Positions 6,644 through 8,969 of a DNA stretch of 64,000 nucleotides are shown in pieces. The notes below the pieces were generated by a model that had not been told where the DNA came from, searched no databases, and saw only the letters and a list, made by a program, of their open reading frames with translations. The stretch's first letter is position 1, and every line of letters begins with the position of its first letter. The position numbers were made by a program, and so were the translations under genes. Origin of the DNA: a virus (taxonomy: Duplodnaviria > Caudoviricetes); IMG/VR virus record IMGVR_UViG_2895847146_000001, positions 53,959 to 117,958 of that record. The stretch is one strand, 5' to 3'.

Positions 6644-7096
6644 ATGAAATCCCTCTTCTACACCCTCTTGTTGACCGCAGCCCTGGCCGGCTGCAGTAAA
6701 GAGTCGAACCCTGGGCCAGCCACCCCTCCACCCCCGCCAGCGACTGATAATACAGTCTACCTGCGCGTGACGGCTGACAACGTGCAGCCTGGCCAGAAGG
6801 CATTTGTGCAGCAAGTAGGCACGCTGAAGGATGCGGTGACGCTTACCCTGCCAGCTGGAGCCTCCTCGCCGGCCAAGCAGATAGCCAACGAGAAGTCCGT
6901 GTTTGTCAAGGGCCAGCAAGTCCAGTTTGGCGTCTACACCAGCACGCAGCCGACCAAAGGCACCGGCACCATCCTGGCCGAGCTGGTACGCGGCACTACC
7001 GTTCTTTCCAGCGTTACCTGGGACAACGCCAGCCCACCCGCCTGGGACCAGCCGAGCCAGAGCGCGGTAGTCAATAAGACCATTACCCTGCCCTAA
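6644..7096 (+). CDS. lipoprotein (moron-like, independently transcribed)
   Basis: Signal peptide with LAGC lipobox and Pro-rich linker; flanked by two terminators. Confidence 0.85.
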   Translation: MKSLFYTLLLTAALAGCSKESNPGPATPPPPPATDNTVYLRVTADNVQPGQKAFVQQVGTLKDAVTLTLPAGASSPAKQIANEKSVFVKGQQVQFGVYTSTQPTKGTGTILAELVRGTTVLSSVTWDNASPPAWDQPSQSAVVNKTITLP

Positions 7097-7099
7097 TAC

Positions 7100-7136
7100 A
7101 AAAAGCCCCGCCGTACTGCTACGGCGGGGCTTTTTT
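7100..7136. terminator. bidirectional intrinsic terminator at the early/late convergence
   Basis: AAAAAGCCCCGCCGTA-CTGC-TACGGCGGGGCTTTTTT. Confidence 0.9.
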
Positions 7137-7139
7137 AGC

Positions 7140-7290
7140 AAAGCTGCATTTCTTCCACTTGGCTCAGCCAAGGACACTTTGCGTTCCGCTTCACAGCGGG
7201 AACCTGCTCCACACATTCCAACAGCAGGTAATTTCACGAGGGCACTGCTTTCGCATTCAGTTTGCAACCTGATTTTCAGCCCTTGTATTG
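7140..7290 (-). ncRNA. putative structured ncRNA (multi-hairpin)
   Basis: No credible ORF; stems AGGGC/GCCCT, TGC-GAAA-GCA, ACCTGCT/AGCAGGT, CCGCT-GTGA-AGCGG, CTTGG/CCAAG. Confidence 0.45.
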
Positions 7291-7437
7291 TAGAGAGGGC
7301 GGGATTGGATACCCGCAAGCCACGTTCTGCAAGCCAACTTTCATTCCTGGCCTCCCGGCCCTTGCAGAGCACATGCTTGGCCGAAGCCGCACAACAAGGA
7401 GGATTTTACATATCCAGGGGCAATTGCCAACCTCTCT
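7291..7437 (-). ncRNA. tRNA-like RNA with very long variable arm
   Basis: Acceptor AGAGAGG/CCTCTCT+A; T-arm GCGGG-TATCCAAT-CCCGC; anticodon-like arm GGAT-ATGTAAA-ATCC. Confidence 0.6.
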
Positions 7438-7469
7438 ATTCTGTCAGCCGCTCGATTGGCGGCTGTATT

Positions 7470-7688
7470 CTACTGCATTGCTTCCAAGTCCCGCCGCGCC
7501 TTGTTCCACGTCAGTAGGTGCAGCTCGAAGTTGGCCGCGTCCTGGATGCGTTTTTCGGCCACGGCCTTATCAAACCACTGTTGCTGACGCTGCTGCTCCC
7601 GACGGATGTAGTTTAGCGCATCCTGAAACGAGGGCCCGGGCTGTTTCGGCGTATAGAGCCACGAGAAGAATTTGCAAAGGAAGTCCAC
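7470..7688 (-). CDS. hypothetical protein
   Basis: 72-aa ORF in the minus-strand operon (GTG start). Confidence 0.55.
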   Translation of the reverse strand: MDFLCKFFSWLYTPKQPGPSFQDALNYIRREQQRQQQWFDKAVAEKRIQDAANFELHLLTWNKARRDLEAMQ

Positions 7689-8470: not shown

Positions 8471-8544
8471 TGGCACACCCTCGTTGGTTCGAACAACGCG
8501 CCCTCGGATTTGGAGTCCAAGGAGCCTCCACTGGCTCCGGGTGC
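8471..8544 (-). tRNA. tRNA-Trp (CCA), short D-arm, encoded CCA end
   Basis: Anticodon arm TTGGA-CTCCAAA-TCCGA; T-arm CGTTG-TTCGAAC-CAACG. Confidence 0.8.
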
Positions 8545-8552
8545 AAGTAAAG

Positions 8553-8624
8553 GGTGTTAGCGGGAGTCGAACCCTGTCCTCCGCATTCACAGTGCGGCGC
8601 TCTAACCAATTAAGCTACTAACAC
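8553..8624 (-). tRNA. tRNA-His (GTG)
   Basis: Acceptor GTGTTAG/CTAACAC+C73; anticodon arm CCGCA-CTGTGAA-TGCGG. Confidence 0.85.
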
Positions 8625-8626
8625 AG

Positions 8627-8700
8627 TCGGGGTGGCAGGACTCGAACCTGCGGCCTCCTGCTCCCAAAGCAGGCATCATAGCCAACTAGACCACACCCCG
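8627..8700 (-). tRNA. tRNA-Pro (TGG)
   Basis: CGGGGTG/CACCCCG acceptor; CCTGC-TTTGGGA-GCAGG; canonical T-arm. Confidence 0.92.
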
Positions 8701-8771
8701 GGTTGGCTTATTTCGCGTGGGAGCCACCCACCAAAGAACGAGCCGCTTGCCTATACTGCGACGAAGGTGTT

Positions 8772-8849
8772 TGGTTTGACTGGTCGATTTCGATACGACA
8801 AATGTTGGCTTATCAAGAGCCAATTGCTTTACCTTTAAGCTACAGTCAA
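8772..8849 (-). tRNA. atypical tRNA with enlarged anticodon arm (identity uncertain), encoded CCA
   Basis: Acceptor TTGACTG/CAGTCAA-ACCA; D-arm GCTT/AAGC; TTGGCT-CTTGATA-AGCCAA; T-loop ATCGAAA. Confidence 0.6.
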
Positions 8850-8897
8850 ATCTTTACCCTACGCGAAGGACCACGACGTTAAGCGCCTACGGCGGTG

Positions 8898-8969
8898 TAG
8901 CGAAACACAGATTCGAACTGCGGACCCCTCGGTTATGAGCCGAGTACTCTACCCCTGAGCTACTTCGCT
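8898..8969 (-). tRNA. tRNA-Met/Ile2 (CAT)
   Basis: AGCGAAG/TTTCGCT acceptor; CTCGG-CTCATAA-CCGAG; TTCGAAT T-loop. Confidence 0.9.

Follow-up and report, generated by a model that had tools for sequence, protein, structure and literature searches.

What is an RNA of 147 nt, with the ends of a tRNA and a large block of additional stems, doing inside a phage genome, and where did it come from? The window (the whole stretch of viral DNA analysed, 64,000 nt) encodes a DnaB-type helicase, RusA, an M15 endolysin and tail proteins, and is part of a prophage. The element lies on its minus strand and, read from 7437 to 7291, has the order AGAGAGG UU GGCAAUUGCC CCU GGAU-AUGUAAA-AUCC, followed by 84 nt and then by GCGGG-UAUCCAAU-CCCGC CCUCUCU A (Table 1). 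It was first described, in what we call the original prediction, as a tRNA-like RNA with a Tyr-like anticodon and a giant structured variable arm. The stems described there are all present: written in dot-bracket form they comprise 42 pairs, all canonical, and the structure is near-optimal (-54.0 kcal/mol, compared with -54.8 kcal/mol for the MFE structure). Our preferred reading, to which we assign a probability of about 0.5, is that the element is a non-decoding copy of a tRNA-Ser gene at the head of a structured tail, in which the stack of acceptor and T-type helices has been kept as a putative processing mark.

Table 1. Features of the element and of the surrounding tail (coordinates in the window).
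Feature	Coordinates	Strand	Basis or remarks
Upstream hairpin AGCCGCC-AAUCGA-GCGGCU	7445..7465	-	Directly past the stop of the 72-aa ORF; a hairpin at the same place in G014
Whole element, very probably tRNA-Ser-derived, 147 nt including discriminator A at 7291	7291..7437	-	Sequence and tRNA-Ser alignment
Acceptor-like helix, 5' strand AGAGAGG	7431..7437	-	Identical to the acceptor 5' strand of host tRNA-Ser(CGA) and tRNA-Ser(GGA); same in G014
D-arm remnant GGCAAUUGCC, D loop deleted	7419..7428	-	Aligned to host GGCA-GAGUGGUCGA-AUGC with a gap of ~9-10 nt
Anticodon-arm-like hairpin GGAU-AUGUAAA-AUCC	7401..7415	-	Aligned to the anticodon arm of tRNA-Ser(CGA)
Inserted or expanded region, 84 nt	7317..7400	-	GGC-UUCG-GCC; 8-bp stem UCUGCAAG/CUUGCAGA; cap GGCC-GGGA-GGCC; second anticodon-arm-like hairpin
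Second anticodon-arm-like hairpin GCCAG-GAAUGAAAG-UUGGC	7351-7333	-	Within the 84-nt insert; used by the tRNA-Ser model R1
T-arm-like hairpin GCGGG-UAUCCAAU-CCCGC, 8-nt loop	7299..7316	-	Relative to the T arm of tRNA-Ser(CGA), one A inserted and one G>C
Acceptor-like helix, 3' strand CCUCUCU	7292..7298	-	Identical to the strand in host tRNA-Ser(CGA) and tRNA-Ser(GGA); inside the prophage att core sequence
Element 3, small three-way junction directly downstream of the element	7236..7286	-	Fold; 91% over 57 nt to G159
Strong bidirectional intrinsic terminator closing the ~370-nt non-coding tail	7100..7136	-	

Folding energy does not set the element apart. The 147 nt fold no better than chance (z = -1.11, with 32 of 200 shuffles folding at least as well), and the 84-nt insert is no more stable than its shuffles, 26% of 500 being as good or better. 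A closing helix of such length beside a hairpin is marginally unusual, its score being reached at 0 of 69 background loci and in 2 of 31 reversed-flank controls. The element is lifted above chance by its homology to tRNA-Ser and by a syntenic relative in another genome of the host genus (G014), not by folding energy.

ARAGORN and Rfam, both proposed as checks with the original prediction, give no tRNA call at the element and no Rfam family at its own gathering score. The four tRNAs that ARAGORN does call in the window are Trp, His, Pro and Met (8471-8969), and Rfam at gathering scores returns four tRNA matches in the window, none of them at the element. The Rfam tRNA model gives no match on 7230-7500 (271 nt) at E ≤ 10, and tmRNA, YrlA and mascRNA likewise give none at the element at E ≤ 10; no tag reading frame is present. 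A tmRNA identity was rejected, in agreement with the original view that the RNA is too short for one. Within the phage tRNA cluster itself, a fifth tRNA-like gene (8775-8849, minus strand) scores 41.8 bits with the Rfam tRNA model and is not called by ARAGORN; the loop of its anticodon arm, UUGGC-UCUUGAUAA-GCCAA, is 9 nt long.

The single permissive Rfam match on 7230-7500 is to manA RNA (RF01745), so the element could be imagined as a distant member of that family with a cis-regulatory or ligand-binding function. The model aligns end to end with 17.7 bits (E = 0.014 on 271 nt), and a GGGUAU..AAUCCC hairpin stands beside the closing helix in both RNAs. This score, however, is far under the gathering score of 55.2, the E value is 0.13 on 2.4 kb, the outer helix of the model is deleted in the alignment, and the shared hairpin recurs in other RNAs. 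Moreover, the terminator and the convergent gene that come after the element show that it does not lie in a 5' UTR. Membership of the manA family is therefore scarcely credible.

The tRNA-like character that had been noticed is explained by descent from a tRNA. As the comparison set we used the 49 tRNAs called by ARAGORN across the whole host genome. Both strands of the outer helix are identical to the acceptor stem of two of these 49, tRNA-Ser(CGA) and tRNA-Ser(GGA), and the 3' 26 nt of the element match tRNA-Ser(CGA) at 22 of 26 positions, with one extra A and one G>C in the T loop. A global alignment of the element in which long gaps are cheap puts the four tRNA-Ser genes at ranks 1-4 among the 49; the score is reached by none of 1000 shuffles against tRNA-Ser(CGA) and by none of 300 against the best of all tRNAs. 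The parts aligned to tRNA-Ser are AGAGAGGU, the D stem GGCA..AUGC without the D loop, the anticodon arm GGAU..AAAUCC and the flanks of the Ser variable arm. BLAST separately matches the element to the 3' end of tRNA-Ser(CGA) in G168 (90% over 30 nt). A covariance model seeded with six tRNA-Ser genes (R1) gives the element 10.6 bits from a partial alignment covering 7362-7290 only (E = 0.0046 on 231 nt, and 1.4 when 70.6 kb are searched); R1 scores are weak overall, at 10-13 bits with E 0.4-1.5 in the 70.6-kb search. The element is very probably tRNA-Ser-derived and non-decoding, a heavily rearranged and diverged copy of a class II host tRNA-Ser gene inside the prophage. The Tyr-like anticodon is superficial, because the parent is a tRNA-Ser, whose anticodon arm (CGGAU-UCGAAA-UCCG) is the part that aligns with the GUA loop.

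At its ends the element is built as a tRNA is, with a 7-bp acceptor helix (AGAGAGG/CCUCUCU), a discriminator A and a T stem (GCGGG/CCCGC) that is flush with the helix. Directly after the acceptor-like 5' strand it has UU (7430-7429), compared with UG in the host genes. The D element reads GGC-AAUU-GCC and contains no GG that could serve as G18 G19; the anticodon-arm-like hairpin keeps U33 and A37 in a 7-nt loop on a stem of only 4 pairs; and the T loop UAUCCAAU has 8 nt and not the 7 nt of UUCRANY. The interpretation in the original prediction is therefore supported only in part: the D element, the T loop and the rejection by tRNA finders count against it, and the T arm is absent from the G014 relative. 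Since the D loop is lost, the T loop has 8 nt and ~65 nt of stems are extra relative to tRNA-Ser, the element is not expected to fold into a decoding, L-shaped tRNA.

The giant variable arm is in doubt. The insert is present, in or near the variable-arm position and not at the canonical intron position, as had been stated; it is absent from G014, and it may have entered between D arm and anticodon arm, by insertion or by partial duplication, instead of being an enlarged variable arm, because model R1 uses the second anticodon-arm-like hairpin. One sequence fits both readings. No second copy of the 84-nt insert occurs in the host genome. Matches to a sigma-70-like promoter inside the element are not above expectation (2, compared with 1.3 expected from shuffles), and the long ORFs overlapping the element on both strands match no PHROG family.

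tRNA-Ser appears again in the surroundings of the element. The window belongs to a prophage of ~79 kb (G000:C7 2325273-2404500, about -11240 to 67986 in window coordinates), which is inserted at the 3' end of tRNA-Ser(CGA). The distance from tRNA-Ser(UGA) to tRNA-Ser(CGA), 79 kb in the host genome here, is 53-74 nt in G014, G159 and G168, in which the tRNA-Ser(CGA) integration site is empty. The 3' end of tRNA-Ser(CGA) is repeated beside tRNA-Ser(UGA) as a direct repeat (13 nt by BLAST, 16 nt from the printed flanks, CCCCCCTCTCTGCATT), and repeats of TATAACATA[GA]GTAGAACA lie near both prophage ends. The only tyrosine integrase of the 79 kb is encoded immediately inside the left end; another integrase is found beyond the prophage, to the left of tRNA-Ser(UGA).

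The element is internal to the prophage, 18.5 kb from its left end and 60.5 kb from its right end, and carries, towards its 3' end, CCCGCCCTCTCTACAAT, which is similar and not identical to the core CCCCCCTCTCTGCATT (14/15 over the shared part by BLAST, about 13/17 by eye). With the arm of the left core it shares the 11-mer CAGAACGTGGC and ~30/41 nt, a score reached by 13 of 500 shuffles. These likenesses could mark a relic of recombination at the DNA level, either an old or secondary att site of a tRNA-Ser-integrating phage or a scar of tandem prophages, and mosaic breakpoints do coincide with the element, G014 sharing the part upstream of it and G159 the part downstream. Yet the core is non-identical, the sole integrase of the 79 kb sits at the far left end, 18 kb away, and the prophage with the G014 homologue is 1.1 Mb from the unoccupied tRNA-Ser(CGA) site; furthermore, a core scar leaves the 5' acceptor strand, the D stem and the anticodon arm unexplained. 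We consider such a relic very unlikely. The resemblance may indicate that the internal element and the attachment region share an origin, as they would, for example, if an ancestor had captured the target tRNA.

On the minus strand, the tRNA cluster is followed by a 179-aa ORF (8230-7691), a 72-aa ORF (7688-7470) and ~370 nt without a supported ORF. This tail contains the upstream hairpin, the element, element 3, more hairpins and the terminator, and is faced by a convergent gene (6644-7096). Taken as 381 nt, the tail folds with z = -4.45, none of 100 shuffles being as good, and the element is modelled as the first module of a terminator-ended tail that closes the leftward operon. Element 3 recurs in a prophage region of G159 (L002 1501-1557), and the comparison shows a compensatory change in one pair, CAG/CUG to CCG/CGG. 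Rfam has no match for element 3, and its pattern gives 0 matches in the viral contigs; when 7136-7300 was compared by BLAST across the genus, 6 of 165 genomes gave matches, of which only that in G159 is real, that in G016 looking like chance.

In G159, AAAGAGG...CCUCUUU occurs ~175 nt upstream of element 3 and was considered as a counterpart of the whole element. It scores 12.7 bits under R1, with the opposite strand higher at 14.8 bits, and its likeness to tRNA-Ser by sequence is not significant (39 of 500 shuffles reach the score), so it is a possible relative only. The same region includes a non-coding stretch of ~600 nt past an HNH endonuclease gene (L002 1230-1830; z = -7.4, 0 of 20 shuffles as good), which looks like a modular structured RNA and has only element 3 in common with the window.

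The relative in G014 is more informative. Within the genus, three genomes (G173, G088 and G014) encode close homologues of the 179-aa protein (51-58% identity). No element is found downstream of the homologue in G173 and G088; in G014 one lies 254 nt past the homologous gene, compared with 253 nt in the window, and consists of AUAGAGAGGUUG ... CCUCUCUAC around a different interior of 61 nt. The end blocks of 12 and 9 nt are 100% identical between the window and G014 (21/21), compared with 66% identity for the gene DNA and 50-54% for the flanks. Both phage copies have U9 and A73, where the host tRNA-Ser genes have G9 and G73, and one D-stem pair has changed on both sides, from G-C in the window to C-G in G014, which has GCCA...UGGC. 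The G014 element, too, ranks tRNA-Ser first (1 of 300 shuffles reaches its score). It keeps the D-loop sequence AGUGG..CGAAU in a D arm that has gained 12 nt, and has no T-arm-like hairpin, no large insert and no recognisable anticodon arm. The exact element pattern occurs in 2 of 274 family genomes (1 in the reversed control), and G014 is the only clear relative.

The identical ends, the shared U9 and A73 and the compensatory D-stem pair argue for a common phage-borne ancestor and for a constraint on the closing helix, on the basis of one relative and one such pair. The acceptor helix itself is identical in the two copies and shows no covariation, and its preservation could also be due to gene conversion or to selection acting on the DNA. 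The same comparison bears on a second reading, a pure pseudogene, in which a captured or former phage tRNA-Ser gene decays neutrally and its stems are functionless leftovers. The two relatives have indeed changed in unlike ways, the window copy by losing the D loop and acquiring the insert, the G014 copy by taking 12 nt into the D arm while its anticodon and T arms became unrecognisable; tRNA finders reject both copies alike, and the insert is only as stable as shuffled sequence. Neutral decay accounts poorly, however, for helix ends that agree at 21 of 21 positions amid neighbouring DNA of 50-66% identity, for derived bases at positions 9 and 73 that both phages have and the host genes lack, and for a D-stem pair changed in a compensatory manner. 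Pure decay is thus unlikely in our judgement, and a retained role in processing or structure is put forward as a tentative alternative to it.

A third possibility, a sharper form of the original prediction, is a functional mimic of tRNA-Ser, which would be processed, receive a CCA end and act as a decoy or sponge for a reader of the acceptor helix and the long extra arm (SerRS or a tRNA-directed defence nuclease being candidate targets), or would carry the inserted RNA domain. The variable arm is the main SerRS identity element, and the extra RNA of the element lies in or near this position. The exact acceptor sequence of tRNA-Ser is kept in two phages, and phage tRNA regions encode stable RNAs of unknown role, such as RNAC and RNAD of T4 (as described in part of PMC3014915). 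Against a mimic, the discriminator is A and that of the host is G; the large arm and the T arm, which should make the mimic, are absent in G014 and hence not conserved; and no tRNA-repair or tRNA-targeting gene was found among the 19 ORFs scanned between 756 and 18829. We regard a mimic as distinctly improbable here, and it would be a still longer shot that some phages of the host genus keep a non-decoding, processed and CCA-tailed tRNA-Ser mimic, with the exact acceptor helix and an enlarged extra arm, which titrates or distracts SerRS or an immune nuclease, or delivers an inserted domain.

According to the preferred reading of a non-decoding tRNA-Ser copy with a retained processing mark, an ancestral phage would have captured a host tRNA-Ser gene; the present prophage is itself integrated in tRNA-Ser(CGA). 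From tRNA-Ser the element has kept U8 and the D stem as well as an unaltered 7-bp acceptor helix, together with a hairpin of anticodon type and a T-arm-like one that abuts the acceptor 3' strand. The element would be transcribed at the head of the ~370-nt tail, and its stacked acceptor and T-type helices would have been maintained as a tRNA-style punctuation mark, with RNase P cutting 5' of the element and RNase Z cutting 3' of it. These cuts may separate the upstream mRNA from a downstream small structured RNA, or may simply stabilise the 3' end. Known tRNA mimics suggest that a stack of acceptor and T arm is enough for tRNA-end processing, and both RNase P and RNase Z need a T-arm-like hairpin. 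The lack of a T arm in G014 weakens the processing reading and the mimic reading alike.

The T-arm-like hairpin is also found elsewhere. Its 18-mer occurs at 7 loci in viral contigs, three of which represent a single coding context. A 9-bp closing helix lies directly 3' of the 18-mer in L012 and L013; that in L010 is weaker and not above background, and the L014 locus is a weak tRNA-Lys-like gene. On the latter phage contig (L014 475-795), a tRNA is accompanied by this weak tRNA-Lys-like gene, which has the same 8-nt T loop and scores 25 bits, and by a tRNA domain of 76 nt like that of tmRNA, which lacks the mRNA part and scores 46 bits (gathering score 47). In species genomes, the 18-mer occurs at 39 loci, none inside an ARAGORN tRNA, and ten of the 39 form a repeat family, in which 9 of the 10 copies visibly begin with GTGCGCC. 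The members of this family (L200, L203, L204, L207, L211, L221, L225, L227, L233 and L236) carry the hairpin GCGGGUAUCCAAUCCCGC ~65 nt in, and eight of the ten lie at contig ends of one MAG; the family, with its GTGCGCC start, may represent the 5' portion of a group II intron. Because the 18-mer is present in unrelated structured RNAs, the hairpin seems to be a T-loop-type module that recurs, not a signature of tRNAs, and this recurrence probably also explains the weak manA match.

Wider searches were made by alignment, BLAST, descriptors and protein neighbours. MAFFT does not align the elements of the window, G014 and G159, and blastn against the phage GenBank collection returns no match. The two neighbouring proteins have no relatives in the viral contigs, and a metagenome scan with the 179-aa protein yielded 2 distant loci only. 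A family-wide BLAST of 7250-7480 gave matches in 8 of 274 genomes, meaningful only in G159 (element 3) and G168 (the tRNA-Ser 3' end); a match in G105 was rejected as a homologue because it falls in coding DNA. The 14-mer GGGTATCCAATCCC was likewise dropped, as it occurs at no fewer than 120 loci (at least) in viral contigs, mostly coding or random. The descriptor RAGAGGTW..TGTMAAA..CCTCTY finds 10 places in 9 of 165 genomes (1 in the reversed control). Its new places are unconvincing: those of the G085/G123/G014-C2 type lie opposite the N-terminus of a trypsin-like ORF and are no more stable than their shuffles (z = -0.83), and in G036 the 3' strand is part of a terminator. A conserved UGUAAA loop, resting on three sequences, was abandoned as unproven.

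Other structured RNAs were seen during these searches. Directly after the homologous element in G014 lies a DUF3800-VIII-like RNA hairpin (L139 1088-1153, minus strand), which scores 36.4 bits (gathering score 40.2; E = 3.7e-5 on 401 nt). No DUF3800 (PF12686) gene lies near the element; one is present in G000 on another contig, and none in G014 and G159. Three viral contigs (L043, L046 and L134) have GGGTATCCAATCCCTAGAAGC in common, with flanking hairpin stems that vary in sequence and stay paired, and may contain another conserved phage RNA.

An odd tRNA look-alike thus becomes traceable to a host-type tRNA-Ser gene, apparently captured by a tRNA-Ser-integrating phage and then remodelled. If its end helix is a processing mark, the element would be a bacterial-phage case of tRNA-style punctuation that releases a small structured RNA; if it is a relic only, it would be a record of how phage tRNA genes decay. 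Either way, the first comparison for tRNA-like stems near a phage tRNA cluster should be with the tRNAs of the host itself.

By sequence, the element is a remodelled tRNA-derived RNA in a prophage, which reaches no described Rfam family, and it can be placed beside several known systems. With class II tRNA-Ser (the host CGA and GGA genes) it has in common the 7-bp acceptor helix, U8, the D-stem bases, GGAU..AAAUCC, the flush T stem and also C74 after the discriminator; it differs in the missing D loop, the 8-nt T loop, the 4-bp anticodon stem, GUA in place of CGA, ~65 extra nt and the discriminator A. With manA RNA (RF01745) it shares a multi-stem junction, a purine-rich closing helix and the GGGUAU..AAUCCC hairpin beside the 3' strand of that helix. 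That motif has been found in phages (part of PMC2864571), and is located in 5' UTRs of marine cyanophage and bacterial genes, whereas the element here is at an operon end; among the literature listed for the manA motif and riboswitches, no ligand is reported. The DUF3800-I to -XI, drum and skipping-rope motifs are described, in part of PMC5737381, as structured modules followed by intrinsic terminators and not located in 5' UTRs. To judge from that part, such RNAs of mobile elements resemble the terminator-ended tail of the element, which matches none of them. The YrlA or Y RNA-like RNAs, the tRNA-like domain of tmRNA and mascRNA are tRNA mimics, and the element has no Rfam match to YrlA, tmRNA or mascRNA. 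RNAC and RNAD of phage T4 are processed along with the T4 tRNAs. The stable non-tRNA RNAs of phage tRNA regions appear by analogy to be the closest in function: like the element, the T4 pair are small non-tRNA RNAs that accompany a phage tRNA cluster (part of PMC3014915), a likeness drawn from position and type.
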